From the IMG/VR virus record IMGVR_UViG_3300032304_002264, positions 1 through 64,000 of that record: DNA of 64,000 bases. One strand, 5' to 3'. The DNA is from a virus. Positions within the stretch are counted from its first letter, which is position 1. The number at the start of each line of letters is the position of its first letter. Under the pieces are notes generated by a model. That model did not search any database and was not told the origin of the DNA. It saw only the letters and a program-made list of their open reading frames with translations. Below are positions 3,143 through 49,312 of the stretch, piece by piece. Both the position numbers and the translations under genes were made by a program.

Positions 3143-4285
3143 ATGAAAATTACTCTTAAAAGAACTCCAGAACAAATCGAGCTTGTAAAGGCTATGGCTT
3201 CGAAAAATCGCGCTATCGCGACCGAAGCTCAAGTCGCACTTGCTGAGTTCATTGGCCCTGTCTTGGCTGAAGTGATCAACAACGCTCCTACGCTGAGCAA
3301 CTTGTTCACATCTCTCCAGTTCAACGCCGATGACAATCCTAGCATTCCGCTTGACCTCTATTATGATGTCAATGCTGAAGACTACATCGAAGTTTACAGC
3401 CAAAGCGCTGCTGGCGGTCTTCCTCAGAACCAAGTGCTTCCTACTGTTTCTGAAATGAAGATCCATACCTACACTCTTGATTCCGCACTGAGCTTCGATA
3501 AGCGCTATGCAGCCAAGAGCCGCTTGGATGTGATCAGCAAAACCTTCACTCGTCTCGCTCAAGAAATTCTTCTCAAGCAGGAAAAAACTTCCGCCAACCT
3601 CCTTCTTGGAGCTCTTGCGGCTGCTCAAACCAATGGCAAGAGGCACGTTCAACGCGCCAACACCAACGGTCGTTTCCTCTTGGCTGACCTCAACGAGCTG
3701 TTCACTCTCGCGAAGCGTATTAATACGTCTTTCCTTGGTGGCACTCCAGATGCCCGTCAAGGCCGTGGTATCACCGATATCATCGTTTCCCCAGAAGTTG
3801 TTCAAGAGCTCCGTGCTATGGCGTACAACCCCATCAACACCAAAGGTTCGCCCGCTGGTGGAACTGCTGCTGATGGTATCGCTGCTCCCGAAGACATGAG
3901 AGCTGCTATCTATAACTCCGCAGGTATTCCTGAGTTTTATGGAGTTGGCATCATGGAAATCAATGAGCTTGGTCGCGGTCAACGTTTCAACACTGTGTTT
4001 GGTACTGTTGCAGGTTCGACAGCATATACAAAAGCCGATGGAACCAGCTCCGCTGTTTTCAACGGCGCTGCCGAAGAAATCATCATTGGTCTTGATCGTG
4101 GTCGCGAATCTCTGATTCGTGCGGTTGCTGTCGATTCGGAAAACGGTTCGGAGTTCTCCCTGACTGCCGATGACCAATACAGCGTTCGTCAGCAAAAAAT
4201 CGGCTACTTCGGCTCGCTCGAAGAAGGACGTATGGTTCTCGATACCCGCGCTCTCGTTGGCAAGATCGTATCTGGAATTGCTTAA
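3143..4285 (+). CDS. Major capsid protein
   Basis: 380 aa, last gene of protease-decoration-capsid run, codon usage of a highly expressed gene, followed by strong hairpins. Confidence 0.8.
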   Translation: MKITLKRTPEQIELVKAMASKNRAIATEAQVALAEFIGPVLAEVINNAPTLSNLFTSLQFNADDNPSIPLDLYYDVNAEDYIEVYSQSAAGGLPQNQVLPTVSEMKIHTYTLDSALSFDKRYAAKSRLDVISKTFTRLAQEILLKQEKTSANLLLGALAAAQTNGKRHVQRANTNGRFLLADLNELFTLAKRINTSFLGGTPDARQGRGITDIIVSPEVVQELRAMAYNPINTKGSPAGGTAADGIAAPEDMRAAIYNSAGIPEFYGVGIMEINELGRGQRFNTVFGTVAGSTAYTKADGTSSAVFNGAAEEIIIGLDRGRESLIRAVAVDSENGSEFSLTADDQYSVRQQKIGYFGSLEEGRMVLDTRALVGKIVSGIA

Positions 4286-5429: not shown

Positions 5430-6551
5430 TCAAAATGGAGAGCCCAAACCAGTGAAGCTTCCGCTCATTTGAATACCGTTGGTCGAATCGTTAACGCCAC
5501 CAATTTGAGTACTAAAGGTTAAATCAGCAGTTTTGTTCGAGCCAATCGAGCTGGAAACACTAGAAGAATCGAGCTGAGCATTTCTAAAAGTATATCTAAC
5601 CGCATCTACGTTTGTGCCTGGTCTTTTTATTGTGATTATAATATCATTTTTAGGGTTCGCGTTGACCAAATCAACTAAATTACCACCAGCAGTTTCTGTT
5701 TGCACACCATTTACCGTAAGAGTTGCCGTCACAGGGAAGTCAACCACCCTAGCAAAAGCAAATTTCGAACCAAGGCGCTCAATTGGAGTTCTGCCCAAAG
5801 GAAGAGACATACTAGCGCTTTGGATATGAATTCCATCTGAACCACTAAGCAACGAAATCATTCCGCCAGTACCAAACGTGCCAAAATCAATAGTAACATC
5901 TCCTGGGCGAAGAGCGCTTACAATTGAGTCGAGAGCTCCAGTATTGGGGGTAGGATTTTTCAAACGAATATTGGTTCCAAGCGATGTTCCGCTAATTGGA
6001 TCAACGCCGACATTCCTTCCAGAGTTATTTCCAGAGAATGTAAAGGCGTTCATGTTTATACCTTCAAAGCTAACATTTACAGTAGGAATGCTGCCAACCG
6101 CCAACTCAAGCGAATAATCGGTAAGATACGCATTTCCAATACCAATGCCACCCATTCCGCTCAAAATATTTGAGCCTGTAAATTTGTTAAAGTCAGTGCC
6201 TTCGTTGCTAGTTACGATGTAGAAATTCCTACCAGTGCCATCTTGAATATGTCCAGATGGAAATTGATTAGCAGCTTGAGAGCCAGTAGAAACATAGAAA
6301 CCAAGGGCGCTTTCGTTTCTGCCGTCAGTAAGATAATAGCTAGCATCAAAAGAAACAGTAGGAGTTTCCAGAACGATAGAATCAATACGAGCTAATTCGC
6401 CATATTGGTTAACGTCTTGACGAGCGATGTTGAAATTATAATTGGCTGATTGTACGCGAGCGAGCTGGGCGTGATCGCCACTACCCGTTGAATTGTATTC
6501 TTTGCTGACGTATATGCCTTCTGATTGATAGATTATTCGATTTCGTGCCAT
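5430..6551 (-). CDS. Major tail tube protein
   Basis: 373 aa, beta-rich G/S/T composition; shares motifs with tail proteins at 19740 and 21472; ends at a terminator. Confidence 0.7.
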   Translation of the reverse strand: MARNRIIYQSEGIYVSKEYNSTGSGDHAQLARVQSANYNFNIARQDVNQYGELARIDSIVLETPTVSFDASYYLTDGRNESALGFYVSTGSQAANQFPSGHIQDGTGRNFYIVTSNEGTDFNKFTGSNILSGMGGIGIGNAYLTDYSLELAVGSIPTVNVSFEGINMNAFTFSGNNSGRNVGVDPISGTSLGTNIRLKNPTPNTGALDSIVSALRPGDVTIDFGTFGTGGMISLLSGSDGIHIQSASMSLPLGRTPIERLGSKFAFARVVDFPVTATLTVNGVQTETAGGNLVDLVNANPKNDIIITIKRPGTNVDAVRYTFRNAQLDSSSVSSSIGSNKTADLTFSTQIGGVNDSTNGIQMSGSFTGLGSPF

Positions 6552-6605
6552 AAGTGTTTATCTTTACTTTCTTTACATCAATAACAAAAAAAAGAGAAAA
6601 AAAAA

Positions 6606-7454
6606 TTACAAACGAGGATATCTTTGTTGGTGTATCTCAAAATCAATAAACCCGATAAACAAATCGTTGGCTAGTGACTTTCTTGCTTTGTCGCGTAATT
6701 TGGAAGTTACCACATCTTCAATGAAGAAAAGGGGCTCGTCGTCGTATTGGTTTTTTAATGAATCATAAGAATATGAACCATTTTTAATGTCTCCGTATTC
6801 GGTGGTCGGATTGCCAGAGAATGGAATGGTCGGGAAAACCTCATTGAGACTGTCCGCAAAAATAGAAAGTACGCCATCAAGTTGATAAGAGTTTTCCGCC
6901 ATTACCACCGCTTTCATTTGGATTTGGGTCGTATCTTCGCCGCCAAAAGAAAATGGGGCGTTGTTGATTGATTGACTCGACAAGAAAATCGCGGGGACGA
7001 CATTATCATATGGTTCGATATAAGATTCGTCCGCCGAAAAAACGCGGGAATTTGGCGTATATTTTTTATCGACAATCAAATCTTCTTCGCCGTCGTTAGT
7101 GAAGTAGATGTTAAAATCTTTTACCGCGAAAGAGCCTGATACAGAGGCGGAAGATGCCGCGCCACTGATTAACGCTCGACCATTAGTGAAATCCAAAAGA
7201 AGAGAAGAGCTTCTGGGCTGAAAAGTCCCGCCGACATGCACTCCCGAAGGAATGACCGCACCAGCAATAGAAGAGTCATTTACCCATTGTTTATATGGGC
7301 TACCAAAAGCCTTGAAGCGATCATCGAGACGATCATCGACATAATTATAAAACGAGCCACTTTTATTGGAATACGCTTGCCCCTTTTTTAGAAGATAGTT
7401 GTCAAACCACAGCATGAAAGAGTTGGTGGCTTTGTGTTGGAATTGTTCGATCAT
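6606..7454 (-). CDS. Probable tail terminator/neck protein
   Basis: 282 aa directly upstream of the tube gene on the same strand; by position. Confidence 0.45.
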   Translation of the reverse strand: MIEQFQHKATNSFMLWFDNYLLKKGQAYSNKSGSFYNYVDDRLDDRFKAFGSPYKQWVNDSSIAGAVIPSGVHVGGTFQPRSSSLLLDFTNGRALISGAASSASVSGSFAVKDFNIYFTNDGEEDLIVDKKYTPNSRVFSADESYIEPYDNVVPAIFLSSQSINNAPFSFGGEDTTQIQMKAVVMAENSYQLDGVLSIFADSLNEVFPTIPFSGNPTTEYGDIKNGSYSYDSLKNQYDDEPLFFIEDVVTSKLRDKARKSLANDLFIGFIDFEIHQQRYPRL

Positions 7455-7457
7455 AAT

Positions 7458-8060
7458 TTATTTGAGATTTAGTTGTGAAGATTGAATGGACGAAAATCGT
7501 TTTATATATTTTTGTATAAAAGCGGATACATATTGAACCCGTTTAAAGTTTCCGCCTTGAGATTTTTTAGATAACTGAAAGCCCGCCGTCGATCTTCCTG
7601 CGCCAGACTTATTAACGTAAAAGCCTAATCCAGAAATTCCACTTTCAATACCTTTAGCCCAACTACGCCCACTAGCCCAAGGCATTGGGGTCGCATCGAA
7701 AATAGATGCGGCAGAGGGAATGGTTATGGTGACAAGATAATCCGAACCTTCCCGTATGACAATAAAAGAGGATTCCAAAAGATCCAAGATCGGTTCTATA
7801 GGCTTGTCAGACTCCTCGAATCCTATAAAGCCGAAAAGGTTTCCCTTGCCAGATAATGTGCCAGAAGTATTAGAAGAACTTGGTCCCGCCATGATCTCTT
7901 GCGTGACTGGCAAGCTCAAGAAATCGCGTATCATTTGTTGTTTTATCGTATTAAACTCCTCCTGAATGGATTTATAAAGTTGCGCCTTTAAAGCTTTCGC
8001 GGAATCTTTGCGAGCTTTCTTTAAAACAGATTGAGGGATTATGACTCTGCCGACATTCAT
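7458..8060 (-). CDS. Probable neck/tail completion protein
   Basis: 200 aa, basic, in neck block; by position. Confidence 0.4.
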   Translation of the reverse strand: MNVGRVIIPQSVLKKARKDSAKALKAQLYKSIQEEFNTIKQQMIRDFLSLPVTQEIMAGPSSSNTSGTLSGKGNLFGFIGFEESDKPIEPILDLLESSFIVIREGSDYLVTITIPSAASIFDATPMPWASGRSWAKGIESGISGLGFYVNKSGAGRSTAGFQLSKKSQGGNFKRVQYVSAFIQKYIKRFSSIQSSQLNLK

Positions 8061-8518
8061 TATTCATCAATAGGTGTCAAAAAGAATTCATAATATTGAT
8101 TGCTAAACAATCCAATGGGATTGCCATCGCTACGAATTGAAAAGGAAATGCCGTCGAACTCGACCTTGCGAGCTTCTTTAATAAACAAATATCCTTGGGG
8201 ATCGACAACGATTTTCACAGAGCCGTTCGGCATGATAATTTTATTTTGAGAATCGCTGTCGGCGGAAGAATTAGAGAAAAACTCTTCTTCCATTTTGGCA
8301 TAGTAAATGCGAGCCGAAAATGTTGCAGAAACTGTTTGATATTCAGAAGTATTCGTTGCCCCAGATGTTCCATAAATAGCATTGAACGAGGGAGAGCTGG
8401 CTATTGCGACTCTTTTTGCATTTTTATAAACCGTGATTTCGCGTGAAAATGTATCGTGCAAATCAGCGAGCTTACTAGAAACTCTATCCATGAGTTTTTG
8501 ATTTATTAGGCTGGGCAT
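8060..8518 (-). CDS. Probable head closure/stopper protein
   Basis: 152 aa beta-rich, first gene of neck block; by position. Confidence 0.45.
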   Translation of the reverse strand: MPSLINQKLMDRVSSKLADLHDTFSREITVYKNAKRVAIASSPSFNAIYGTSGATNTSEYQTVSATFSARIYYAKMEEEFFSNSSADSDSQNKIIMPNGSVKIVVDPQGYLFIKEARKVEFDGISFSIRSDGNPIGLFSNQYYEFFLTPIDE

Positions 8519-8851: not shown

Positions 8852-9613
8852 ATGGAAAAAGGATTTAAAGAATTGTATAGCTTCTCTGTTGACAGAGAGG
8901 TAGAAAAGGAAGTCAGCTCCACTAAAAAAGACAAGAAAACAGGAGACGAAATCAAGGTGACTAAAAAAGTCAAGGAGATGGAGCCTTTGGTAATTAAGCT
9001 CAAAAAGCCTTCCCGCCGTGAACTTGAGGAGGCTGAGCTAGAATTTAGCGTTGAAATGAGCAAGTGCATTAAAAAGGGCATTCTCACTAAAGCTATGTTG
9101 GCTAAGAAGTATAGCGACACGGGAGGTCTTATGAGCGAAGACGACGCTCAAGAACTTGTGGACAACTACAAAAAGATTTTCGAATTACAGTCGGAATATT
9201 CAAGATTGGAAATCGTTCAAAACAAAACCGAAAAACAAACCGCTAGAGTTTCTGAAATAGCAGCCGAACTGCAAGTAGTTCGTCGCAAAATCGTGGAAAC
9301 CGAATCTAACTACCAATCTCTTTTCGATCATACCGCTGACGTAAAAGCTCAAAATAGATTGATTCTGTGGTATGTTATTATGCTCACCTATATTCAGGGC
9401 GCTGATGATGAGAGTCCAAAGCCTTATTTTGGCGTTGGTGACTTTGATGATAAGCTCGAAGAGTATTACAAACAAGAAGAATCCGACGATTCGCTATATT
9501 TCTTGATTACAAAGAAAGCTGCGACAATTTTCGCATTCTGGTTCTTCAATCAAGCTTCAGACAAAGATTCTTTTGATGATTTAATGAAGAGAGTCGAGAC
9601 TGGTGATATTTAA
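8852..9613 (+). CDS. Probable tail assembly chaperone
   Basis: 253 aa, charged and helical, two genes upstream of the tape measure. Confidence 0.5.
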   Translation: MEKGFKELYSFSVDREVEKEVSSTKKDKKTGDEIKVTKKVKEMEPLVIKLKKPSRRELEEAELEFSVEMSKCIKKGILTKAMLAKKYSDTGGLMSEDDAQELVDNYKKIFELQSEYSRLEIVQNKTEKQTARVSEIAAELQVVRRKIVETESNYQSLFDHTADVKAQNRLILWYVIMLTYIQGADDESPKPYFGVGDFDDKLEEYYKQEESDDSLYFLITKKAATIFAFWFFNQASDKDSFDDLMKRVETGDI

Positions 9614-9616
9614 TCC

Positions 9617-10588
9617 GTGAGCGAAGAAGAATATATTGGAATTGTTGGCGAAATATTTGACGGTTACACTGATATAAATTATCAAGGAAAAACCGTCTAC
9701 ATCAAACATTTCTCCATTCGAGACCAAAGATATATTCACAGATTTTACAATAAATATAAATCAATCGCAGAATCAAAAGGCATCCCCTCGGAAGAGGAGA
9801 TGCTTAATTCTTTGCGTCTAGACGAGTTGTGGAGCGATGAAGACGACCGCAAAATCGTTAGCTTAGAGGAGGATATAGAAGGTTTGCAAGGCTCAAAGAG
9901 GTCTTCATTTCTGCCGTCTCAGAAAAAGAACATTCAAGCAACCATCGACTCAAAAAGAAAAGATTTATATTTTTTATTAAATAAAAAAGCAGAACTCGTT
10001 GGTAAAACATCTGAGCGTTACGGTTCGCAGCGGTCCAATGAAGAATTCATTCGTTATTTGATATATTCAGACCAACAATGCTCCCATCATTTCTTCACCG
10101 ATGAAGATTTCGCGGAGTTGTCAGAAGAGGATTTGGAATTCTTCGTTAAAGAGAATGATGCTATTAGTCAACGACTCAACGAATCTAATATTCAACATGT
10201 TGTGTTGCGAGACTTTTTCAATATGTATATTTCGCAAACCGAAGACGTTTCGTCGTTTTATGGCAAACCGATTATCGAGCTTTCTGTTTATCAGCTGAAG
10301 CTGGCAATCTATGCAAGAATATTTTTCAATATGTTTCAATATCACGAAGATATTCCAGAAAGAGCAAAGAAAGATCCAGAAGCCATTTTCGACTTCGTGG
10401 AAAGAAAAAAGGGCAACAACTCTAAATCTAGTTCGAACAATGAAAAAGGAGCTTCCGCCGTGTTCGGCGCTACAAAAGAAGATTTGGAAATAATTGATCC
10501 AAACGCTCGAACAGTTAATCTTTCCGACGAGATTAGCAAAAAAGGCGGCGTGATGAATATGGATGATTTGATTGAATTAATGGGGTGA
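9617..10588 (+). CDS. Probable second tail assembly chaperone
   Basis: 323 aa, GTG start, immediately upstream of the tape measure. Confidence 0.45.
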   Translation: MSEEEYIGIVGEIFDGYTDINYQGKTVYIKHFSIRDQRYIHRFYNKYKSIAESKGIPSEEEMLNSLRLDELWSDEDDRKIVSLEEDIEGLQGSKRSSFLPSQKKNIQATIDSKRKDLYFLLNKKAELVGKTSERYGSQRSNEEFIRYLIYSDQQCSHHFFTDEDFAELSEEDLEFFVKENDAISQRLNESNIQHVVLRDFFNMYISQTEDVSSFYGKPIIELSVYQLKLAIYARIFFNMFQYHEDIPERAKKDPEAIFDFVERKKGNNSKSSSNNEKGASAVFGATKEDLEIIDPNARTVNLSDEISKKGGVMNMDDLIELMG

Positions 10589-10630: not shown

Positions 10631-13600
10631 ATGTCTCAGTCTATTCAAATACCCGTTACCCAAGTAGGTTTAGAGCAGAGCATCGCTGCGGCTATGAAGC
10701 GCGTGGGCAACTCTTCTCAAATTAATTTGGGAACTAACTCTAAGCAAATTAATGCGCTGAGCCAGCCTCTTGGTAGAATTACTGGTCAGGCTGACGAGTT
10801 TTCTAAATCCATGGCAGCGGCTAACGCCCGTGTTTTGGCGTTCGGAGCTTCTGCAAGTATTATTGCTGGCGTATCTGTAGCGATGTCGGGACTTTTATCA
10901 AGCACGATTAAAGTTGAGAAAAGTTTAGTCGAAATCAATGCTGTTTTGGGCGTAAGTGGAGATAAGCTGGATAAATTTGGTCAAGGCATCTTTAATGTAG
11001 CAAAAAATACAGGCAAATCGTTTGAAGAAGTTGCTACGGGCGCGTTAGAATTAGCTCGGCAAGGTTTAAGCGCCGAAGAGACCCTGACTAGATTGAATGA
11101 CGCTTTGATTCTTTCAAGGCTTTCGGGTTTGGATGCGGCCAAATCTGTAGAGGGTTTGACGGCAGCATTTAACTCGTTTAAATCTTCTGGAATTTCGACA
11201 GCCGAAATTCTTAATAATATTGTTGCCGTTTCTCAAAAATTCGCTGTTTCTGAAAAAGATATTATTGAAGGTCTCGGAAGATCCGCTTCAGTTGCGGATT
11301 TAGCAGGAGTTTCATTTAATGAGTTGGCGGCTATTATAACAGCTGTGCAAGAAAAAACGGCTAGAGGTGGAGCCGTTATTGGCAACAGCTTTAAGACTAT
11401 TTTTGCTAGAATACAAGATAAGGCTGTTCTTTCTGATCTGCAAGACATGGGTATTGCAGTGACGACTCTTCAAGGAGATGTGCTTCCAGCATTAAAAATA
11501 TTAGAAAATTTGGCGGCTCAGATGGATGGCTTTTCTCAAATTGAGCAAGCAGATATTTCTAAAAAACTTGGCGGTATTTATCAATTAGATAAGCTGTTGG
11601 CGGCTTTAAAGGACTTGTCATCCGAATCTTCGGTATATCGAGCGGCGTTAAAGGAAATCGAAATGGCTGGTGATTCTGCATATAAAAAGAATGCCGTTCT
11701 CAATGAAACCCTAGCGTCCTTAATTAACAAAGTTACTGTAAGCGCTGAACAGCTTGGCGCAAAACTCGGCGAGATTGGTGTGACAGATAATCTTAAAAAC
11801 CTATTAGGATTCTTCAATAGCCTTCTCGAAGGCATCCAAAAAGTTTTGGGAGAAGAAAGCGGATTAGGCAATTTGGTTCGAGGGCTTGTTAAGGGATTAG
11901 GCAACTTCTTCGCTGGTCCTGGACTCGCTTTATTCGGAGCTATCATACTCAAGCTTTCCAAAGACTTGGTTCAATTCGGATTCGCCAGCTTAAAAGCTTT
12001 CTTTGGTATTGGTCAAGCTGCGAAAGAGGTACAGAGTGTCGAAAGCGCAATTTCTCAAGTCTTGGCGAGAAACGTCGATCTCCAGCAAAAACTTTTTCAA
12101 TTGGAGGGCAACAGAGCGGGGCAATTGAAACTGATTACTGGCGCACTGGTCGAACAGGAAGCTCTTCTCCGCAGAAGCGCGAGCATTTCTTCTGGATTAG
12201 CCGCTCCTCTCTATAATGTGGGAGTCAGAGCCTCAGATTCGGGATTGAGAATAAAAAACAAAGCTGGCGGTTATATGCCAGCAGTCGCCAAAGAAAGTCA
12301 AGCAATCAACAGCGGAGTCGGTGGCGCTCGTAGGGGTGACAAGCCTGTGGTTATGCCTAATTTCAATTTTGGACAAGGCAAAAAAGGAACGGTTGTCGCG
12401 CACACGGGCGAATACGTTGTTCCTAATTTTGGCGGTGGAAAAGGCTCTGCCATTTTTAACCGCGATATGGTGCAAAAAATGGGGCTTCCTGATGGAGCGA
12501 AAAAGATTACGGCTTCTGGAGGATTAATTCCGAATTTTAAAGATGTTGAAATTACAAAAAAAGTTTCAGAATTCTCTTCCTTGGGTAGATTAGTTACTGC
12601 TAAAAAGGTAGATTCGATAGATTCGTTTACGTCCTCAATATCTCCAATCGAACAGACTTTAACAAGCGCAGAATATACTAAAAAAGCTCAAAAGCAATTA
12701 AAAGAAATTGTCCCGAAGTTCGGCAGAAACAATTTGCAAATTAATCAAGCGAAACTCGATCAAACACTAGGGTTTTTTAAAAAAGCGGGGGTTGATACCA
12801 CTTCGATTCAAACGTTTAAAAGCGCAGTCCAAAATTTGGATACCAAAAGGCCGACATCAGGACAATTTTTAAACATTCAGAATAGAATGAAGGGCATTTT
12901 GGGCGAAATCGACGCATCAGAAATGAGCGGCCAAAAATTGAATCAAGGCAATTCGTTTCTTGATTTGTCTGATGGCAGTGAAGTTAAAACGGTAAAAACT
13001 CAAAAAGCTTCTGAGATTTTAAAAAAAGGAATCAATCAGTATCTGTTGTCGAGCAATATTTATGATGGAGAAGATAATAAAACTCAACTTGGCAAGATCC
13101 CCGTATATTTACCCAAGGGAACTCCTCTTTTAAATTCGGCTTCTGGCTTCATTCCAAACTTTGCGCCAAAATTTAACGCCGAAACAGTTAGACAATACGC
13201 CAACGATATTGAAAAATACAAAAACCCAACAAAAGACTTTTATGAATTCCCAGACGGCACTGGCGGATACGGAGCCAACGTAAGACTCGTCTTGTCCAGA
13301 TCTCAGTCGAAAGCCGTTTCCAATAAACAGGAAAAAGAAAAGAAAATATCAGACAAAGGATTTTACAATCTAGATGCCGACGCACTCGGAGGAATTCTTT
13401 TAGTTTCTCCTAGATTTGGTAAATCCAAGGGATCTTTAGATACTTCGATGCCGATTGGCAAAATACCTTTCTTTAACCAAGCTAATACCCCCTCTATTGA
13501 TAAAAATAAATATATCAAACTAAAGGGAATTAAAACAGCCAATACTCCAAGCGGCAGAGATTTGCAAGCATTGCAAGGAGATATAAGCCAATTGTTTGCT

Positions 13601-16600
13601 GGTGGAATTGTTGACCTCGCTTACAAGCTGTATGGTGGGACTTTCGATCCAGCAAGCGGAGGCGAATTCGCCAGTAAGTTAAAATCATTAGATCCATCCA
13701 AAAAGCAACAATTATTGCCCGCCGCCGCGCAAGGAGACTTGTTCGAGGCTGCTGGCAAGGTAGCTCTTAATAGTTTCGCCAACCTAGAATCTTTATTTGG
13801 TTCAGCGGAACAAAGCCGACCTTTTGATTTCCAAAACGCCAGCGCATTGCAAAAAATGTTCGGTGTTAATGCCCGAAGAGGAGAAGCGAAAAGAGGAGGA
13901 GAGAAAAACTTTTCTTCATCAGACCAAGTTTCTGGAATAGTAAAAAAGGTATTTAACGATCCTGAATATTCACTCACTGCTTTAGAGTCTTTGAGGGGGC
14001 AGGGCGCATTTAATTTTTCTAAAGCACAAAAAGCTGCAAGCGAGGCTAGTGCTGCAAGCACCTCTAAAGCTGCAAGCGCGGCTAAAGCTGCAAGCGCGGC
14101 TAAAGCTGCAAGCGCGACTAATGCGGCTGGTGGTTTTATTCCTAATTTTGCAAATTACGAAGACGATAATATCCCAAGCTATGTCAGAGAAGACATGCAA
14201 AAAAGTCCGAGCTTCAAAAGAATTCAATCTTTGTATAATAAATTTCCGAACATTTCTTATTTAAGCAGGGGTGCGGAGTCTTTCGCATTCAAAAACAATG
14301 GAGAAGTTCTCAAGGTTCCCACTTTTAAATATGCTGGTAAAGATAGATTAAAAGATAAAATTGGTGGTATAAATGATATGAATTGGAGCGCGGCATCCGA
14401 TCAATTATCTTTTTTGGCTCCTAACTTGAAAATTATTCCGCCTAAAACAAGCGGCGTTGTAATTTCACAACCTTTCGCTGGGGAAACTGTGGGCAACGTT
14501 ATTAAGGATTATAAAAAAGGGGACTCCATAGGGAAAAAAGCGAGCCAAATTTTCAATTCTGCGCAAAGACTCAACCCAAGAAAACCAAATTGGTTGAAGC
14601 CGCTATCTGTAGACAATGGCTCAAGTCACAATTTCACTTTCCCAGAAAATCTTAGCCAAGCAAAAAAAGATTATTTCAATAACCCGAAAACATCTGCTGA
14701 CGAAATATTCAATAGAAACAAAATCGGGCTGATTGACCTTGGGGTTTTTAGATATTTTTCCAAACAAGCAAGAGAAGAAGAGAAAAAAATTACCCAAGGT
14801 AGTGTTAAGGCTGATGGCTTTGTGCCGAATTTTGCTGATTTTTCGAGCCTTAATTATACAAAAACTCCCGAATACGCCGAAAACCAACAACGCAGACGTA
14901 GAAAAAAAGCAAATTATAAAAATGCTTCGGGCGCTATAGGTAAGATTTTCGGAGCGATTGATAAAGCGGGTCCAACTGTTCTTTTGGACGGAGTAATAAG
15001 TGGCGCGGAAATTCAAGGGTTAAATTTAGATTATATCAAAAGTCTTATTGAAAATAATGGAGCCATCGCTCAAATGTTTTTGGGAGATAAGGGTTCAAAT
15101 TTCGTAGTTCAAGCTAAAAAGTATGGCATTACTGTTCAGCAGTCTGCAATGAAAAAACTTACGTCTTTAGCCGCCAAGGGTTTAAATAAAATGCAAGGTT
15201 TAGCTGGGGGCTATCTCCCTAACTTCGCAAATCCTCTTCAAGATGCCGTTGGTCGTGAAATGGCGGCTGGTGTCCCAGCATCTCAAATATATATAGACAA
15301 AAACTCATCGTTGAAAAACGCCATGAACCCAATGGGCTTGATGGTCGCTAATCGTCGTGATGAACCCGCTGGCGGATTCCAAGGAATCAACCGCGCCAGA
15401 AGAGAGGGGGCCAATCCAATGACTTATGGTGCTGCTGGTGGGTTTGTGCCGAATTATGTAGAGGCCAATGTGCGACCATATATCGGCCAGACGAGAACGC
15501 AAGCTTTAGATGCGGAAAAAAATGATTATAGAGCAGCGCTTAAAGAATTAGCTAAGGAATTAAGAGAGGCGAGAAAAGACTTAATGTATACTAAAAAGGG
15601 AGAGGTCCAACAAAGACTCGCTTTACAAGACCGCATAAAAAGCCTCAAAGAAAATAGCTCTACATTAAAAGCTCAATCTGAAGCAAATAGAAAAGCCATC
15701 ATACAGCAAACAAGAGGCGTTTTAGGAACAGGTAGAACGGCAACATTGCGTCAAGCGACAGTCACGAGCTCTGGATCTGGAGCTGGAGGAAATAGAGATA
15801 TGCTTGGAACTATTTTTGCAGTTCAGGGAGCATTGAGTGTTTTAACTGGAGCAACAGAGGGTGCTACCGAAGGCTTTGGTTTATTTGCTAATACACTTTC
15901 ATCGGCGGCTGGCACAGCAACAACAGCTATTTTTGCCAGCCAAGGCTTGGCGACAGCTTTACCTAAGTTTGCTGGTGTTCTAGGACCCGCTGGAATTGCA
16001 ATTGGCGGGCTAACAGCAGCATATCAAATTGGAACCACACTAGTTAATAAGTATTCAGGAATCACTTCCGCCGTTGCTGCATCAGTAGAAGCAATGGGCA
16101 AAGCGGCAGAGGGGGCGGCTATTAGTTTATCCACAGTTGGAGCGGCGAGAAAAGAAGAAATTAAAAAAAGAGCAAAAGAAATAGGAAGCAATTTAAGTTA
16201 TGGAGAAGTAACGCAAAACAAAGTAGGTGGAACATATGATAGAACGGGTAGATATACACCAGAAAGTACAATTAGTTTTCAAAAGGAAGCTCAATTCCAA
16301 GGAGAAATAGGTGGAGTATTAAATCAGGATTTGCGAAAGCAGTATTATTCAGTAATTGAAAGCGCTACCGCACAACAAGTTCCAGAAAGTACAATTAAAG
16401 GACAAATTGAAATAATAAAAAAAGATGGAATAATTCTAGCTTCTGAATTGAGAAGTTTCTCTTTAAAAATGGCAGATGCCGCGAAAGGATCTTCAAAACA
16501 AGTTAAGATTTTCTTAAACTCAATTAGAGAGAGTGCGGCTGGAGTTTCAGATAAATTAGCTGGAATGTCTGAGGAGCAGTTCGGTGCGCTTTTAGACACC

Positions 16601-19600
16601 TCTACAATTCAAGATCCCGAAAAACGCGCACAAGCGGCTGGATATGCAACGGCAGCGGAGTATAAAGATGCGAATTATAAATTTAAGGGAGCTAATTTAT
16701 CAGATAGAATTCAAACCCAATTGGAAATATCAGAAGAACAATACAATAAAGTATTTAAAGATTTAGATGATAAACAAAAGGGCGATATATTAACTAAAGC
16801 AAGAACAGAGGCCATAGCTACAAAGAGTCAAAAAGAAATAGATGAGCCTCAAAAAGAAAGAGACTTACAAGTAAATCTTGGAAGATTACAAGCTGAGATA
16901 AATTTAAATCAAAAATTAAGCGATAAGAAAAAAATAATTCTTAATGAAGAGCAAGCGCAAAAAGAAAAAATAGCGGAAATTGAAAATAATATATCTCTAT
17001 CTGAGAATGCAAAATTAAAAGAGATAGCAAAAATTAATAAGGAATATGGAAAATCCATCGCTTTATTAAATGAACAAGAGCAACAAGCAAAAAATATAGG
17101 AGACGCGCTCATTAGTGGACTAACTGGAGTAGCGGGAATTTCTGGAGATCAAATTCCTGGGTTTGCAGATAAAATTAAATTAAAAGTATTACCTAAATTT
17201 GATGGTAAAGATATTAATCTTTATCAAGACCAATTACGAAATTTACTAATCGACCCAGCATTAGAATTACCGTCAGAAGCCGTCAAGCCATTGATTGAAG
17301 CGTTGTCCAAAGCAGTAGTGCTTAATAAAGAATCTTCAGATGAAAAAGAAAAACAAATAGCCATATTAGAAAAAGAATATGGCATTCAAATAAAATCAAT
17401 TGACGCATCATCAGATAAGCTATCTTTAGAAAAACAAATCAGTGCGCAAATCGAGGCTCGCAACTCTGAGTCATCTTTCAAAATTGAAAATAGAGTATTA
17501 AATAATGCTTACGAAACTTTATCAGTTAACAAAGAAATTGAACAAATTAAAAGACAAACATCTCTTAATGAATTGCAAAAAGCTGAAGAAGTCTACAAAT
17601 TAGAACTAAAGAGAAAAGATTTGGAGTCCACTGGAATAGGAATTGGTTTAGAGCAAAAAATATTAGATATAGATCAAGATCTAATTAGTAAAGCTAGATC
17701 AGCAATTAAAGATTCTGGGATGATAGCTTCTGGTGGATTACGTTCAGATTTAACGCTCGAACAACTTCAAAAAATAGCTGGTGCAGATCCTGGCGTTTCA
17801 GAAGAAATTAAATTTGCTATAGAAAACGCCAAAAGACAAAGAGAATTAGCTCAAAAAGCAGCGCAAAATCAACAAGCTGGTCTTGGCGATGTAACAAGAG
17901 AAGGTGTTTTAGATAAAGTTGATAGAGGATTTTTTGGTGGAATCAATGACAGCGTGATAGCTCTTGAAAATCAAATTAATACATTCGCATTCGACATTGG
18001 AGAAAAAATACCTCAAATGTTCTCAGACAACATGTCTAGCGCCATCAATAAAATGATTGAGGGCGGCGAAAGTTTCAGCAGTGTATTACGCGGAGCGGCC
18101 TACGAATTTGTCAAAGGCATAAATCAAGCAAATATAAAAAACCTATCTGATCAGTTTTCCAAATCATTATTTAGTGGCGGGGCGGGTCAAACTAATAGTG
18201 GTGGTGGAGGATTAGCGCAAGGTATTGGAAGCTTTTTCTCCAACATGTTTATGGCCTCTGGCGGCATGGTCAACGGAGGCTCTGGATCAAAAGATGATGT
18301 TCCAGCGATGCTTATGGGCGGCGAATATGTTGTTAATAAGAAAGCTGTCTCCAAATATGGAGCGCAGTTCTTAGAGTCTGTAAACAATGGAACTTTAACT
18401 GGATACGCTCAAGGTGGATCGGTGCAAAGAGGTCCTCAAGGCAACTTCTATACCCCAGGAACTTTTGGTCAAGGAGCTATCGAAGGCAAGAGAAACCTTT
18501 TGGACTTCGCTACTCAAACTGGCACAACTGGTCAATTCGATAAAATAGTCAATCAATCTGGTTATCAAGCTATTGATTTAGAGCCAGAAAGCTCAAGGCT
18601 TTCGGTTTCTGGAATGAGAAACTCTCCGCAGTTTGAAGCGACTCAAGCGGCGAAAGAACAAGCTTTCGATCTTTATTTACAGCAATACAACGCTGAACTT
18701 GAGGCGAAAAAAGCAGAAAAAGAACAAAAGAAAGCCTTCAGAAAACAATTGATGATGTTAGCAATTTCCGCAGTGGCAGCTCCAGTTCTTGGTGCGGCGG
18801 GAGTTGGCTTTGGAGAAGCGTTTAAGGGTGCTGCTGGCCAAGGACTAATCTCTCAACTTGGAGCTGGAGCCAAAGGCATTTTCACTGGTTTCAATGGAGT
18901 GGGGGGATTAGGAAATCTTTTCAGCAGTGTCGGAAAAGCGTTTACGGGCGACTTTGCTGGCGCAAGCCAGCAATTCAAATACTCGCAGGGTATTATACCG
19001 AAGGCTATTCCAAAGGCCGAGCCAGTTTCTGGAATTAGCAGAGGAATTTCTGCTGGTTCAGTGAGATCTGGAGGAGAAGCTGCGCGAATAGGAGATATAG
19101 ACCCATTGGAATTCGATCTTCCATCGAGCGACACTTCTCTAAGCCCATTAGCCGCAAAAGAGTTTCAAAAAAGACAACAAGCCTATTCAGTATTGACCAA
19201 TATAGACGGGTATTCTCCACAGGCGGCGAAATACGTCATTCAAAATAGTTCGGGTGAATATTTATCAAAAGTGATAGCAAGAGGCGAATTTCTTAAAATG
19301 CGAGCCTCCTCTAGTTCTGTAATTTTTGAAACACAAGAACCCAAAAAGAATGCGACGGGCGGAATGATCCCATCAACTTCTGGCATCGACACTGTTCCAG
19401 CAATGCTTTCTGGCGGCGAGTTCGTTATGAACCGCTCCGCAGTTCAGGGAATCGGATCGCAAAATCTTCAATCCATGAATTCTGGTGGGACTTCTATCAC
19501 TTCAGAAGAGACGAGCAAAAAACTCAACGAACAGCTCTTAGCTAAACTAGATGAGCTTATCAGCGCATCTGGATCAACTGGCGATATCACTATCAACGTT

Positions 19601-19739: not shown

Positions 19740-20528
19740 ATGTTCGACCTATTAAACAACTATGAGAATAAAGTTTTCATCTCTGGGCAAGAACTGCTTG
19801 GAGTTGAAAATGTCGATGTCTCATACTCTCACTCTCCGTCCATTGCTAGATTCTTAGGACACTCAATCGGAAACACGATGGTCGCGAGTGATGCTCAAAG
19901 GCAAGTGTCATTTTCGCGCTATTTGATTTATAACGATCCAATCTTATCGTTAACAGGCGATTCTCCGACCAGCGGCAGCATCAACTATAACGGCCAAGCC
20001 TACGGCTTCAATAGCGGCTTCCTGACCGAATACAGCGTCAATTGTGCAGTCGGCACTATTCCATCTGTCAATGCCGCATTATCTGTTTATGGAGCAATGC
20101 AAAGCGGTATCAATCATTCAGGATCAGTCGCCGCCCCGACAATATATATCCCGAATCAAGGATCAATAACTTTAACGTGCGATAATTCGACAACCAATAG
20201 AGTCGTCGGCTTTGATTACTCAATTAAAATAAACAGAGAGCCAATTTACACAATTGGATCAGTCTTGCCAGCAGCGATAATAAGAGATCCTGTTATCGAA
20301 TATAGAGCTTCCGTGCAGATTGATGTTGATGATGCATTTTTGCAAAACTCAACTGGATTTTTATCTGCTAGACAGAACAAAACCGCAGCTTTTACTATAA
20401 GATCAAAAGACAACGCGCAAATTCTTCAGCAAGTCACGATACCTAACGCATCGTTAGTCGGCGAGACTTTAGCTTCGTCTGCTGATGGCGGTGTAAAATT
20501 AACCCTTAACTATGTAGGACACTCATGA
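19740..20528 (+). CDS. Tail tube-like minor tail protein
   Basis: GFLTEYSVNCAVGTIPSV and INREPIYTIGS resemble tube protein motifs; follows the tape measure. Confidence 0.6.
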   Translation: MFDLLNNYENKVFISGQELLGVENVDVSYSHSPSIARFLGHSIGNTMVASDAQRQVSFSRYLIYNDPILSLTGDSPTSGSINYNGQAYGFNSGFLTEYSVNCAVGTIPSVNAALSVYGAMQSGINHSGSVAAPTIYIPNQGSITLTCDNSTTNRVVGFDYSIKINREPIYTIGSVLPAAIIRDPVIEYRASVQIDVDDAFLQNSTGFLSARQNKTAAFTIRSKDNAQILQQVTIPNASLVGETLASSADGGVKLTLNYVGHS

Positions 20529-21472
20529 GCGCTTCTTTTTACGATAGAACAACAGGCAACATAAGCGGTGTTAACGCTTTAGCTTCATTGAGCTCTGAAT
20601 TTCCCGCTTACGGATCAAAGGTTTCAATGACATCTCGCAATAGCACATACGAGACACAAAACGGTTTCTATAACATGATGCCAATGTCAGTCAACAACTT
20701 GAATGCAAAGTTTGAGTTGCGTTATGATTTGCCAGAGACACAAGCTCAACAATTAGTCAGATTCTTGGAATTAAAGAACGGTCAGGACTTTATTGAGTTT
20801 GATGATCCATCTGATTTCTATAAAAAAGTAAGCGGCGTATGTGACAATTACGCTATTAATCATATAAACAAACGACACTACGAAGTAGCGTTTTCGCTGG
20901 AAGTATTTCAAGCTTCTTCTATACTCAATTGGTCGGGAATGTCATATATTAATACTTCCCCCAAAACTTGGGCGACCTCACAACCATATAAAAAATACGA
21001 TATACTCTATTCGGGCGTGAATGCCAACAAACTGAACAACTTTTATTACGCCACCGAAGATCATACGGCATCTAGTTCTGCGACTGATGGTCCTACAGGA
21101 TCAGCTTCGAAATGGAGTCAATCTTTCTTTTTCGAGCCAGATATTGGTATCCAAAACGATGTCAAAATGCGCGTCGATACGCTCGATTTCAAAAACTCAT
21201 TCATTCAAAAAATTAAATCTTCGCGCAACATTTCTTTAGTAAATTGGCAGTATAAGTTCGAAAATATTGATGATCAAAAAGCAAAAGCTATTTTCCACTT
21301 TTTAGAAAACAAATTAGGCTACAGAAGATTTTATCATTTGCCGTCTTCTGTTTATAATAGATTAAAGGTTTACTACTGCCCATCGTGGCAGCATACGTGG
21401 AACTATAATAATTCTCACACATTGGAAATTGAAATGGTGGAAGATCCACTAGGAATAGTTCCTCAAAATTAA
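20525..21472 (+). CDS. Minor/distal tail protein
   Basis: Two similar halves (AQQLVRFLELKNG and AKAIFHFLENKLG) reminiscent of lambda gpM-like domains, separated by a WATSQPYKKYDI segment. Confidence 0.55.
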   Translation: MSASFYDRTTGNISGVNALASLSSEFPAYGSKVSMTSRNSTYETQNGFYNMMPMSVNNLNAKFELRYDLPETQAQQLVRFLELKNGQDFIEFDDPSDFYKKVSGVCDNYAINHINKRHYEVAFSLEVFQASSILNWSGMSYINTSPKTWATSQPYKKYDILYSGVNANKLNNFYYATEDHTASSSATDGPTGSASKWSQSFFFEPDIGIQNDVKMRVDTLDFKNSFIQKIKSSRNISLVNWQYKFENIDDQKAKAIFHFLENKLGYRRFYHLPSSVYNRLKVYYCPSWQHTWNYNNSHTLEIEMVEDPLGIVPQN

Positions 21473-29112: not shown

Positions 29113-30765
29113 ATGATAAAAGAAAAATACTACTGGCTGAACGAAGACTCCGTTAAATTTTTAGAGCAAGGATATCTCCGTCAAGGGCAGTCCCCGATTA
29201 ATAGAATTGAAGAAATTGCCGCAACAGCAGAAAAGATTCTTGGTATAAAAGGATTTGCAGCAAAGTTTACAGACTACATGTCTCGTGGCTTTTACAGCCT
29301 ATCCACGCCTGTTTGGATGAACTTCGGCAATGAGAGAGGCAATCCCATTTCTTGTTTCAATAGTCATATATCAGACAGCATCGAAGCATTTTTAACGAAA
29401 CAGGCAGAGGTGGGAATGATGACAAAAGTTGGAGGCGGAACTTCTGGATATTTTGGCGATGTTCGACCAAGAGGCTCTGAGATTTCTACTGGCGGCGCAG
29501 CAGAAGGCGCAGTTCGATGCATGGAGCTGTTTGACAACGTAGCGAAGATCATCAGCCAAGGCAGCGCTCGTAGAGGCAGTTTTGCGGCGTATCTGCCAAT
29601 TGATCATGGAGACTTCGATGAGTTCATGAAGATCCGCTCAGAGGGGCATTCTATTCAAGAGATGTCTATCGGAGTCACAATTCCAGATGGTTGGATGCAA
29701 TCAATGGTTGACGGAGACAAAGATAAGAGGCGCAGATGGGGATCTGTAATCAAGAAGCGTTCTGAAACTGGTTATCCTTACGTTTTTTTTACAGATAACG
29801 CCAATAATCAAGCTCCACAGGTTTACAAAGATAAAGGATACAAAATCAATGCTAGCAACTTATGCTCCGAGATCTTTCTTCCCTCGTCTGAAAATGAATC
29901 TTTTGTTTGCTGTCTTTCCTCTTTGAACTTGCTTTGGTGGGACGAAATCGAAAAAACAGATGCGGTTGAAACAATGACGATGTTCTTGGATGCCGTTATG
30001 ACAGAGTTTATTGAAAAAACTAAAAACAGTCGTTTGATGGAAGCTGCTCATAATTTCGCGAAGAATCATCGCGCATTAGGCATGGGAGTTTTGGGCTATC
30101 ACAGCTATCTTCAATCCAAAATGATTGCGTGGGAGAGCATCGACGCTCATCTTGAAAATGTTGCAATTTTTTCAGAAATTCGTAAACGCGCCGATAAAGC
30201 TTCTGAAGAGTTGGCTGCGCTATTTGGTGAGCCAGATGTATTAAAGGGCTATGGCCGTCGCAATACGACCACTCTCGCTATCGCTCCAACTACAAGCTCC
30301 AGCTTTATTTTGGGGCAAGTAAGCCCAAGCATTGAACCTCTTAATAGCAATTACTTTGTTAAGAATCTGGCAAAAGGCCAATTCACTTTCCGCAATCCCA
30401 AGCTAGAAGAAGTGCTAGAATCAAAGGGCAAAAATGATAAAACAACATGGAAAAGCATTTTGATTCATGGCGGCAGCGTTCAGCATCTTGATTTTTTCAC
30501 CGAACACGAAAAGAGCGTTTTTAAGACGTTCGCTGAACTTTCTCAGAAAGAGGTTATTATTCACGCCTCACAAAGACAAACCTATATTGATCAAGGGCAA
30601 TCTCTCAATCTCATGATTCCTGCTGGCACAAAACCAAAAGAAATCAATGAATTGATGATCTTTGCATGGGAGCAGGGAATCAAATCTTTATATTACCAAA
30701 GAAGCTCGAATCCATCGCAAGACTTGGCTCGATCAATTTTGACCTGCTCAAGCTGCGAAAGTTAA
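29113..30765 (+). CDS. nrdA: Ribonucleotide reductase alpha subunit (no ATP cone)
   Basis: STPVW, ISCF, SNLCSEI, VCCLSS, APTTSSS, KSLYY, C-terminal CSSCES. Confidence 0.95.
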   Translation: MIKEKYYWLNEDSVKFLEQGYLRQGQSPINRIEEIAATAEKILGIKGFAAKFTDYMSRGFYSLSTPVWMNFGNERGNPISCFNSHISDSIEAFLTKQAEVGMMTKVGGGTSGYFGDVRPRGSEISTGGAAEGAVRCMELFDNVAKIISQGSARRGSFAAYLPIDHGDFDEFMKIRSEGHSIQEMSIGVTIPDGWMQSMVDGDKDKRRRWGSVIKKRSETGYPYVFFTDNANNQAPQVYKDKGYKINASNLCSEIFLPSSENESFVCCLSSLNLLWWDEIEKTDAVETMTMFLDAVMTEFIEKTKNSRLMEAAHNFAKNHRALGMGVLGYHSYLQSKMIAWESIDAHLENVAIFSEIRKRADKASEELAALFGEPDVLKGYGRRNTTTLAIAPTTSSSFILGQVSPSIEPLNSNYFVKNLAKGQFTFRNPKLEEVLESKGKNDKTTWKSILIHGGSVQHLDFFTEHEKSVFKTFAELSQKEVIIHASQRQTYIDQGQSLNLMIPAGTKPKEINELMIFAWEQGIKSLYYQRSSNPSQDLARSILTCSSCES

Positions 30766-37734: not shown

Positions 37735-38940
37735 ATGAATAATTTAAAAGAAAAATATATAGGCAAAAAAATAGATCATATGGACATACTGAACATCGAA
37801 GACGCAGCAAAAAAATCAGTGGGTAAAAAATCCATTATTGTTACGGGAGTAACTGGGCAAGATGGAAGTCACATGGTCGATTATCTTTTAGCTAATACGG
37901 ACTATGAAATTTTTGGATGCGTTCGTAGGCTTAGTGTTTATAATCATAAAAATATTTCTCATATCAATAATGAGCGTTTTCATTTGATTAATTTCGACCT
38001 TACTGACAGCCATTCAATTTCGAGAATCATTGAAAAGATCAAACCAGACTATTTTATTAATTTAGCAGCTCAAAGTTTTGTGGGCAGCAGTTGGGATTTC
38101 GCCCATCAAACTTGGGAAACGAATTCAACTTCCACCCTTCATATCCTTGAAGCAATTAGACTTTATCATCCCACCTGTAGGTTTTATCAAGCTGGCTCCT
38201 CAGAAGAGTTTGGCGACGTATCATACGTTCCTCAAGACGAGAAGCACCCATTGCGCCCAAGAAGCCCATACGGAGCATCTAAGGCGGCATCAAGGCAGCT
38301 TGTTAAGGTTTGGAGAGAGTCTTATAATCTTTATGCTATTCAAGGTTGGCTTTTTAATCACGAAGGAACTCGTAGAGGCGAAGAATTTGTTACTCGTAAA
38401 ATAACAAAAGCCGTCTCCCGTATTAAAAAAGCTCTCGATAACAATCAGCAATTTGATCCGCTTCAATTGGGAAATATTGATGCTCAAAGAGATTGGAGCG
38501 ATGCTGAAGATTTCGTAGATGGAATTTGGAGAATGCTTAATCAAGATCTCTACTATCTAAACAATATTGCGGAATACGAAGGGGACGCATTCGTCTTGGA
38601 GCTAGAAAATTTACCAAAATATATCAAAGAATATGTTTTATCATCCAATGAAACCCATTCTATCAGAGAATTCGTTGAACTGGCATTTAAAGCGGCTGGA
38701 ATCCAAGGCTATTGGGTGGGGTCGGGATTAAATGAAATGTTCTTGCAAAAAGAAACGGAAAGAGTATTGATGACGATCAATGAAAAATTTTATAGATTAG
38801 CCGAGGTTGAATTACTTCTTGGAGATTCTTCTAAAGCTAGAGCTGATTTAAACTGGCAACCGCAGACATCTTTTAAAGAACTTGTTCAAAAAATGACAAT
38901 TTACGATATTAATCTTCTCGATTCGCCAAAAAATGTGTAA
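37735..38940 (+). CDS. gmd: GDP-mannose 4,6-dehydratase
   Basis: VTGVTGQDGS, NLAAQSFV, YQAGSSEEFG, PRSPYGASK, LFNHE, FVTRKIT. Confidence 0.93.
   Translation: MNNLKEKYIGKKIDHMDILNIEDAAKKSVGKKSIIVTGVTGQDGSHMVDYLLANTDYEIFGCVRRLSVYNHKNISHINNERFHLINFDLTDSHSISRIIEKIKPDYFINLAAQSFVGSSWDFAHQTWETNSTSTLHILEAIRLYHPTCRFYQAGSSEEFGDVSYVPQDEKHPLRPRSPYGASKAASRQLVKVWRESYNLYAIQGWLFNHEGTRRGEEFVTRKITKAVSRIKKALDNNQQFDPLQLGNIDAQRDWSDAEDFVDGIWRMLNQDLYYLNNIAEYEGDAFVLELENLPKYIKEYVLSSNETHSIREFVELAFKAAGIQGYWVGSGLNEMFLQKETERVLMTINEKFYRLAEVELLLGDSSKARADLNWQPQTSFKELVQKMTIYDINLLDSPKNV
38935..38940 (+). promoter_or_regulatory. GTGTAA element formed by the last codon and stop of gmd
   Basis: 8 nt before ATG 38949. Confidence 0.65.
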
Positions 38941-46117: not shown

Positions 46118-46743
46118 ACGACTTACTAAGATTCAAAAAACAACAGAACTACATCACCATTGATGTAGAGACCGAAGGCTTAAACCTTATATCATCTAAA
46201 CCTTGGCAAGTATCATGGATTATTTGTCGCGGCGATAAGATGATATCCAAACACGATCATTTCATTCGCTGGGACAACATCAATGTCTCTGCTGACGCTG
46301 CGCGAATTACGGGTTTTAATAAAAACCACTATTATGAAAAAGCGGAATCTCCCATCGAAGTTTTTAAACAGCTATCAAAGTATCTTTACGATCCATCGTT
46401 TTTAGTGATCGGGCAAAATCTTCTTGGGTTTGATGTTTATATGATCAATGTTTGGCGCAAGCTAATGGGGATGAAAAGCGATAATTCTTATGTCAATAGA
46501 GTAATTGATACCAAGTCTATCTCGACAGCCATCTTCAAGAACATTCTGCCCGACAAAGAAAACTTTTTATCATGGCAATATAAGATGTTGCATATTCGCG
46601 AAAAAGGTCTAAAAACCAATCAAGCTTTCATGCTTAAATATTACGATATTCCCCATGACCCCAAAAGACTACATGACAGTCTTTATGATGTCGAAATGAC
46701 TTTTGAGATTTTCAAAAAACAAATTTTTAACATTGATTTATGA
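46114..46743 (+). CDS. DEDDh 3'-5' exonuclease (DnaQ-like)
   Basis: DVETEG, GQNLLGFD, IDT, LHDSLYDV. Confidence 0.85.
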   Translation: MNDLLRFKKQQNYITIDVETEGLNLISSKPWQVSWIICRGDKMISKHDHFIRWDNINVSADAARITGFNKNHYYEKAESPIEVFKQLSKYLYDPSFLVIGQNLLGFDVYMINVWRKLMGMKSDNSYVNRVIDTKSISTAIFKNILPDKENFLSWQYKMLHIREKGLKTNQAFMLKYYDIPHDPKRLHDSLYDVEMTFEIFKKQIFNIDL

Positions 46744-49298: not shown

Positions 49299-49300
49299 CA

Positions 49301-49306
49301 GTGTAA
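49301..49306 (+). promoter_or_regulatory. GTGTAA element before Clp ATPase
   Basis: 6 nt before ATG 49313 and 9 nt before ATG 49316. Confidence 0.6.
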
Positions 49307-49312
49307 CTACAT

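Follow-up and report, generated by a model that had tools for sequence, protein, structure and literature searches.

A tape measure protein of an uncultured siphophage carries a hypervariable array of cassettes joined by one conserved peptide

The stretch of viral DNA analysed here, which will be referred to as the window, comprises 64,000 nucleotides (nt), positions 1 to 64,000 of the IMG/VR record IMGVR_UViG_3300032304_002264. It contains a large gene on the plus strand encoding the protein P0001. Amino acids (aa) 124-315 of P0001 match the Pfam family PF10145 (PhageMin_Tail) with 98 bits compared to a gathering cut-off of 33.2 (E = 9e-28), and aa 20-470 match several PHROG tape-measure families (best E = 2e-46). 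Matches to the minor tail PHROGs 290 and 14 were obtained for the open reading frames (ORFs) directly downstream (19740-20528 and 20525-21472), and the tail module around the gene is syntenic in approximately 50 related loci. On these sequence matches P0001 is assigned as a tape measure protein (TMP) of the TP901 family. The middle of this TMP is a hypervariable modular array of independently folding cassettes, which are separated from each other by copies of one short peptide. The parts of the array and the other features of the gene are listed in Table 1.

Table 1. Features of the tape measure gene in the window. Positions are those of the window; pLDDT, predicted local distance difference test score of the AlphaFold2 model.
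Feature	Position (nt)	Strand	Evidence or remark
Tape measure protein gene (P0001), 3035 aa	10631..19738	+	single uninterrupted ORF
Conserved N-terminal TMP core, aa 1-544	10631..12262	+	aligned in all homologues
Pre-array module, aa 545-630, begins with decayed motif copy AGGYMPAVA	12263..12520	+	AlphaFold2 beta strands, pLDDT 72-83
Motif copy 1, GLIPNF	12521..12538	+	pattern match; AlphaFold2 pLDDT <50
Cassette c6 (family 6, ~200 aa), optional, first position	12539..13138	+	AlphaFold2 alpha/beta, pLDDT 85-94
Motif copy 2, GFIPNF	13145..13162	+	pattern match
Cassette c1 (family 1, 321 aa), universal core cassette with C-terminal Ala/Ser-rich linker	13163..14125	+	
Motif copy 3, GFIPNF; breakpoint versus closest relatives	14132..14149	+	pattern match and end of P0005 alignment
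Cassette c11 (family 11, 220 aa), protein-kinase-like candidate	14150..14809	+	conserved motifs in 7 members
Motif copy 4, GFVPNF	14816..14833	+	pattern match
Cassette c7 (family 7, 123 aa), helical	14834..15202	+	AlphaFold2 pLDDT 64-84; 20 members
Motif copy 5, GYLPNF	15209..15226	+	pattern match
Terminal module c0 (family 0, 69 aa), highly conserved	15227..15433	+	last cassette in 113/121 homologues
Motif copy 6, GFVPNY, closes the array	15440..15457	+	pattern match
C-terminal module ct1, GGMVNG..DDVPAMLMGGEYVVN	18260..18430	+	paralogue of ct2, hhalign 99.8%
C-terminal module ct2, GGMIPS..DTVPAMLSGGEFVMN	19358..19525	+	paralogue of ct1 (hhalign)

The hexapeptide G[FYL][IVL]PN[FY] is present six times in P0001, starting at aa 631, 839, 1168, 1396, 1527 and 1604, compared to a chance expectation of 0.001 copies calculated from the composition of the protein (probability of at least six copies ~1e-21). 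No copy was detected outside this ORF in any other frame of the 64-kb window. In relatives of P0001, 638 distinct instances yielded the family consensus decapeptide AAxG(F/Y)(I/V)PN(F/Y)A, in which G, P and N are 100% conserved and which is usually preceded by a low-complexity stretch rich in A, S, K, G and P. A preliminary description of this DNA had reported the motif at positions that agree with ours, as they mark the (A/S)x residues 3-9 nt upstream of the hexapeptide. The segment lengths given there are likewise correct (approximately 200, 320, 220, 122 and 69 aa), and the partial copy that it noted at 12263 is real, since distant relatives hold the full motif at the same position, where P0001 retains a decayed seventh copy. 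In front of motif 3, P0001 carries a long Ala/Ser/Lys low-complexity linker, AASEASAASTSKAASAAKAASAAKAASATNA (14014-14131, aa 1129-1167), which close relatives lack in their c1 copies.

A search with aa 540-1660 of P0001 as query yielded 513 proteins of 1670-5300 aa. Motifs were counted in the best 120 of these and cassette architectures were compared over 121 proteins. The number of motifs per protein varies between 2 and 12, with the first full motif always located near aa 630 (mean 628, standard deviation 12) and the final two motifs approximately 77 aa apart. Clustering of the 466 inter-motif segments gave 43 clusters, of which 25 recur. In the 121 proteins the segments are arranged in 78 different cassette orders; the order found in P0001 (6-1-11-7-0) is unique. 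Cassette turnover is fast and takes place within a conserved tail module. Profile comparison showed most cassette families to be mutually unrelated, including those present in P0001. Families 1, 2, 13 and 18 form one superfamily, designated the core cassette, which is found in 118 of the 121 proteins, and the commonest accessory cassette is family 3. Constant across the homologues are the N-terminal core, the core cassette and the 69-aa terminal module c0, the latter with 24 invariant columns over 30 diverged copies. The pre-array module is a paralogue of c0 (hhalign probability 96.8%, E = 3e-10). No correlation was found between array length and the length of the remaining protein (r = -0.14).

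Relatives with approximately 35% identity in the N-terminal core contain a minimal array consisting of motif, 74-aa pre-module, motif, core cassette, motif, 55-aa terminal module and motif. The ancestral frame of the protein is N-terminal core, motif, pre-module of 74-90 aa, motif, core cassette, motif, terminal module of 55-69 aa, motif and C-terminal half, and extra cassettes were inserted or swapped into this frame in the clade of P0001. Other giant TMP lineages of 4300-4500 aa with different N-termini (P0127, P0131 and P0136) were found to possess the motif array together with extra motif pairs approximately 90 aa apart near the C-terminus, so that TMPs make use of a small motif-flanked module at more than one location. 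Homologues of c6 are rare, with only 21 among 1.84 billion representatives, all of them giant motif-bearing TMPs of further lineages or fragments. Searches for free-standing homologues of c11, the core cassette and c6 yielded none, the matches being exclusively giant TMPs or fragments. Scans of viral contigs with c11 and c6 as single queries returned no loci, and a metagenome scan with c1 returned one locus only. Among the cultured phages of INPHARED no match to the array or to c0 was obtained, only generic matches to the TMP N-domain with 26% identity.

The exchange of cassettes is also evident from the positions at which homology between relatives ends. The closest relative, P0005, is 96% identical to P0001 over aa 1-1173; the alignment stops exactly on motif 3, and the remainder is approximately 42% identical. 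When alignments with at least 75% identity were considered, 68% of 199 internal ends were located at most 10 aa from the end of a motif, compared to 6.5% for random positions (pairs not independent). At the nucleotide level, where breakpoints were determined in IMG/VR and metagenome loci, DNA blocks common to the loci begin or end within a few nt of the motif codons. Nevertheless, the DNA of the motif is not itself conserved: over 191 distinct instances, the entropy of synonymous codons at every position of the motif is the same as for these amino acids in the rest of the gene. As the synonymous codons of the motif are as free as the gene background, it is the peptide that is under strong selection at every junction. 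That breakpoints coincide with motifs is then explained by selection for junctions that work, or by short microhomology, and not by a DNA site that is conserved. These comparisons bear out several points of the preliminary description, namely that the segments are unrelated, that the peptide is conserved while its codons differ, and that cassette number and identity vary among orthologues with motif and flanks remaining constant. The additional proposal that the linker is a recombination joint holds in so far as homology breakpoints fall on the motif; it does not hold in the sense of a classical recombination site, as the motif is not conserved as DNA.

The region from aa 560 to 1700 (1141 residues) was modelled with AlphaFold2, and c1 was in addition modelled separately, with a clean alignment of 33 diverged copies as input. 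Both c6 and c1 (pLDDT 80-94 for c1) were predicted to be globular alpha/beta domains, c7 was predicted to be helical, and c0 was modelled with moderate scores (pLDDT 56-74). For c11 the scores were low (pLDDT 25-48), and its alignment columns are noisy, with few true homologues among many unrelated rows. The model of c1 alone reached a mean pLDDT of 82.9. All motif copies have a pLDDT below 50, and in the predicted monomer the motifs are flexible linkers between confident globular domains. Foldseek searches against the PDB and BFVD and a wide VIA-align search with the 1141-residue array model gave no meaningful match, fold searches with the model of c1 alone retrieved no known fold, and the ESM Atlas contained no usable match to c1. 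Similarly, phmmer and profile searches against PDB sequences gave nothing significant for the array, the core cassette, c0 or family 3. No cassette tested, from P0001 or from the two cassette-richest relatives, matched Pfam or PHROGs, and the array regions of P0001, P0043 and P0048 contain no Pfam domain beyond PF10145 at E <=0.1-1. A complex prediction with three c0 copies and both flanking motifs gave a score of 0.00 and speaks neither for nor against self-association.

Conserved residues of a catalytic type were detected in several cassettes. In c1, the only invariant residues are G191, E195, D222 and K243, together with D or E at position 241 (33 copies with 12-77% identity), and in c6, E123, D142 and E148-x-K150 are conserved in at least 90%; the other first-position families 10, 14 and 15 show the pattern D-x9-12-E-x-K. 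The residues of c1 and c6 fit the E..D..(D/E)xK pattern of restriction-endonuclease-like nucleases with a PD-(D/E)xK fold, which we regard as a lead at the level of motifs only. Cassette c11 conserves, in this order, a Gly-rich loop, a beta3-type Lys, D-x(4-6)-N-FTF and GLIDxG (7 members). Family 3, in which the motifs G.G..F, VKKF, an alphaC-type Glu, DLHGxN and iDxG are found, can be aligned with c11 in register (hhalign global 63.8%, E = 9e-6). The sole PDB profile match of c11 was to an aminoglycoside phosphotransferase (E = 0.048), located at the Gly-loop and the DFG-like regions, and the nearest c11 ESM Atlas clusters are of the SteC, OspG and T7-kinase types (score 0.92-0.95, a lead only). 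No match of c11 was found in Pfam, and its direct comparison with T7 gp0.7 was not significant (hhalign probability 0.9%). The motifs of c11 are thus coherent leads towards a kinase-like domain, not demonstrations of one.

A second variable site exists in the C-terminal third of the family. In relatives, including P0025, P0028, P0043 and P0087, lysozyme, VanY and NlpC/P60 domains are located there; they precede a pair of paralogous GG..VPAML..GE(Y/F)V modules, at a distance of 290-500 aa from the first one. GH19 and SLT domains are also listed for relatives in precomputed Pfam annotation. In P0001 itself no muralytic Pfam domain was detected. The muralytic domains of the relatives indicate that this TMP family tolerates globular enzymes within the chain, and, as they are positioned outside the motif array, that the array is a second and distinct variable site. 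The preliminary description had mentioned that the known cargo of TMPs is mostly muralytic; in the relatives such cargo is placed at the C-terminal site. Its expectations on the nature of the segments were confirmed in part: c6 and c1 are predicted as globular alpha/beta domains rather than plain helical TMP sequence, although Foldseek did not assign them to a known fold, and the nuclease-like residues of c1 and c6 and the kinase-like motifs of c11 are indeed conserved, although no fold or profile match was significant.

Tape measure proteins lie in the lumen of the tail tube and are ejected first, and those of lambda (gpH) and T5 (pb2) are processed. With this background, the array would be carried in the tail lumen within the TMP chain and would exit the virion ahead of the DNA. 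The cassettes would represent variable cargo enzymes acting at the very start of infection, comprising the nuclease-like core and first-position cassettes as well as the kinase-like c11 and family 3, and the decapeptide would most likely be the processing site that frees them. This suggestion is based on the arrangement of the junctions, where unrelated domains are separated by exposed linkers that all carry the same conserved peptide, as in a polyprotein, and the low pLDDT of the motif between confident domains is as expected for exposed junction sites. Processing might be carried out by a domain of the TMP itself, with the core cassette as the obvious candidate because it is a universal domain with catalytic-type residues. 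Scans of Pfam and PHROGs detected no peptidase family. An alternative chemistry would be Asn-dependent self-cleavage between Asn and Phe of the PNF string, a reaction known from the coat proteins of nodaviruses and tetraviruses. Taken as a whole, a tail-carried variable enzyme cargo with the decapeptide as processing site is the reading that we tentatively prefer, as one that is quite possible but short of probable. Rather unlikely in our judgement, at least in its full detail, is the more far-reaching version in which the array is a self-processing effector polyprotein delivered via the tail, cut between Asn and Phe by the core cassette or by Asn chemistry, and releasing phage-specific nuclease-like and OspG/T7-type kinase-like enzymes before phage gene expression. 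Such an array would be the counterpart, in a tail tube, of the effectors of type III secretion, and the junction peptide would in addition allow its cassettes to be exchanged freely between phages.

Several other explanations have to be considered. With the array still being cargo or a functional insert, the decapeptide might serve in docking. At every junction it would bind to the chaperone of tail assembly, to the lumen of the tube or to adjacent TMP chains; the cassettes would remain covalently linked and be kept soluble and in register while the tail is assembled. A motif that is unstructured in the monomer model and follows flexible linkers is typical of linear binding motifs, and in lambda chaperones bind the TMP at several sites. 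Moreover, the pre-module and c0 are paralogous with the motif at both ends, so that the motif may belong to a small repeated assembly module, and the motif pairs near the C-terminus of other lineages point in the same direction. Nevertheless, no docking partner has been identified, and strict invariance of G, P and N at junctions of unrelated domains is the classic layout of polyprotein sites; we consider docking somewhat unlikely. Alternatively, the cassettes might have a structural role restricted to assembly, as spacers, intramolecular chaperones, a plug or length-setting elements, which diversify neutrally or by selection from the host envelope and are perhaps removed before the tail is completed. 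The universal presence of the core cassette and c0 would agree with this, as would the restriction of the tested cassettes to TMPs, the failure to find a known enzyme fold and the missing correlation between the lengths of the array and of the rest of the protein. However, the conserved residues are charged sets of a catalytic type (E, D and (D/E)xK; Gly-loop, K, DxxxxN and DxG) and not core hydrophobics alone, and both the high number of architectures and the swaps between 96%-identical phages resemble the turnover of an arms race. A role in assembly only is thus judged unlikely.

The nuclease-like signatures in the core and first-position cassettes and the exchange of blocks exactly at the motif might also be explained by selfish in-frame mobile elements, similar to homing endonucleases or inteins, with the motif as insertion or splice boundary. 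Yet the motif lacks the hallmarks of inteins, with neither Cys/Ser/Thr at position +1 nor His-Asn, and no conserved DNA sequence is present there that could act as a homing site. In addition, many cassettes are without nuclease signature, and the core cassette is not a sporadic but an ancestral and universal component, which makes this explanation very improbable. Inteins or Hint domains were rejected as candidates, as the junction ...G(F/Y)(I/V)PN(F/Y)A has Phe/Tyr after and Pro before the Asn. Finally, breakpoints that coincide with the motif would be expected for a repeat or recombination site at the DNA level, and a repeat due to chance or composition was considered as well. With 0.001 copies expected and third-codon positions as variable as in the rest of the gene, such an origin is hardly credible; the codon entropy at the motif directly contradicts the DNA-level reading.

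The preferred reading of a processed, tail-carried cargo can be compared with several known systems. TMPs with embedded enzymatic domains are known from mycobacteriophage TM4, which carries an Rpf-like motif, and from T5, whose pb2 contains a peptidase domain. P0001 resembles these in being a PF10145 TMP with globular domains in the chain and in having relatives with muralytic Pfam domains, but differs in that the arrays of its family hold 1-11 non-muralytic cassettes of no known family, each bounded by the invariant decapeptide, away from the C-terminal muralytic site. Viral polyproteins likewise consist of unrelated domains split by one short conserved peptide in exposed linkers, and here too a universal domain could be the processing enzyme; in contrast to them, the domains are carried by a protein that belongs to the virion structure of a tailed phage, the junctions are known from sequence and no protease fold was detected. 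In polymorphic toxins, conserved boundary motifs are VENN in CdiA and PxxxxDPxGL in Rhs proteins. There as here, the constant part is set off from the swappable domains by a short conserved peptide, beyond which domains are replaced through recombination, whereas in the TMP the motif is found at every junction of a multi-cassette array, without immunity genes and in the context of a phage tail. Minimal kinases (OspG, SteC and T7 gp0.7, with the DLxxxN loop of RIO, Bud32 and Kdo kinases) share with c11 and family 3 a size of approximately 170-220 aa and a Gly-loop, Lys, DxxxxN and DxG in the same order. However, c11 has no significant match to a hidden Markov model or fold, and the spacing between catalytic loop and DxG is longer than usual.

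Polyvalent proteins are giant proteins of phages and conjugative elements with 2-15 unrelated shuffled domains, for which delivery together with DNA has been proposed and which are sometimes processed (Iyer et al. 2017, PMC5512222). Several unrelated shuffled domains per polypeptide are common to both (five cassettes in P0001; 43 clusters and 78 architectures in the relatives). However, the signature domains of polyvalent proteins (MPTase peptidase, nuclease, methylase and ART, among others) were not detected by Pfam in the arrays of P0001, P0043 and P0048. Tape measure proteins are mentioned nowhere in that paper (0 occurrences), and the passages of it that were searched contain no repeated junction peptide. 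The shuffling of protein fragments in host-interaction proteins of phages (Smug et al. 2023, PMC10684548) is likewise a case of the general phenomenon of domain mosaicism in phage proteins; in P0001 and its relatives, however, shuffling takes place only inside an array that has its own invariant junction peptide. A full-text literature search with the motif strings yielded nothing on phage or tape measure proteins, the sole string match being unrelated. Enzyme-bearing TMPs and polyvalent injected proteins are thus the nearest known kinds, compared to which the architecture found here is unusually clean, and our data suggest that phages have in this array a means of carrying variable protein cargo that has not been described before.

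The proteins injected by tailed phages, and their diversification, are largely unknown beyond a few model phages. In the family described here, one carrier protein exists in hundreds of natural variants, with cassettes that can be interchanged and a junction peptide that is defined. Should the cassettes be enzymes that are delivered, they would constitute a large untapped catalogue of early-acting functions in host takeover or anti-defence, and the array would in addition be a ready-made scaffold to load cargo into phage tails. If the motif is a signal for processing or docking, it would represent a new short functional peptide of tail assembly. Either way, the array bears on the question of how a tape measure accommodates approximately 1000 residues of globular domain per chain in the tail lumen.

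Beyond the tail module, the window encodes a ribonucleotide reductase (29113-30765), a GDP-mannose 4,6-dehydratase (37735-38940), a DnaB helicase (41757-43265), a DNA polymerase III alpha subunit (46740-51616) and a two-ring ClpB-like AAA+ ATPase (57785-59680), and related contigs reach 130-184 kb. The tail module, the DNA replication genes and the size of the related contigs together lead to the conclusion that the window derives from a large uncultured siphophage. Seven head and tail ORFs tested between 890 and 10588, in the positions of portal, capsid and chaperone genes, had no PHROG match at E <=0.001, and the ORFs 890-2449 and 3143-4285 matched nothing in Pfam. The products of 8852-9613 and 9617-10588 are putative chaperones, and the ORF 5430-6551 on the minus strand is taken to encode the tube protein. 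Six phage-sized contigs of 64-139 kb (L062-L067) carrying this TMP family and the c0 module were found in metagenome-assembled genomes, which are labelled as Saccharibacteria, Neomarinimicrobiota, Verrucomicrobiales and, in three out of six cases, Flavobacteri-. The presence of phage contigs in these genomes is probably due to contamination during binning, and the hint to Flavobacteriales as candidate hosts given by the Flavobacteri- labels is a weak one. Near the GDP-mannose 4,6-dehydratase gene a weak glycosyltransferase-like match was observed. Four genes of the tail module (5430-8518) are located on the minus strand, opposite to the tape measure gene.

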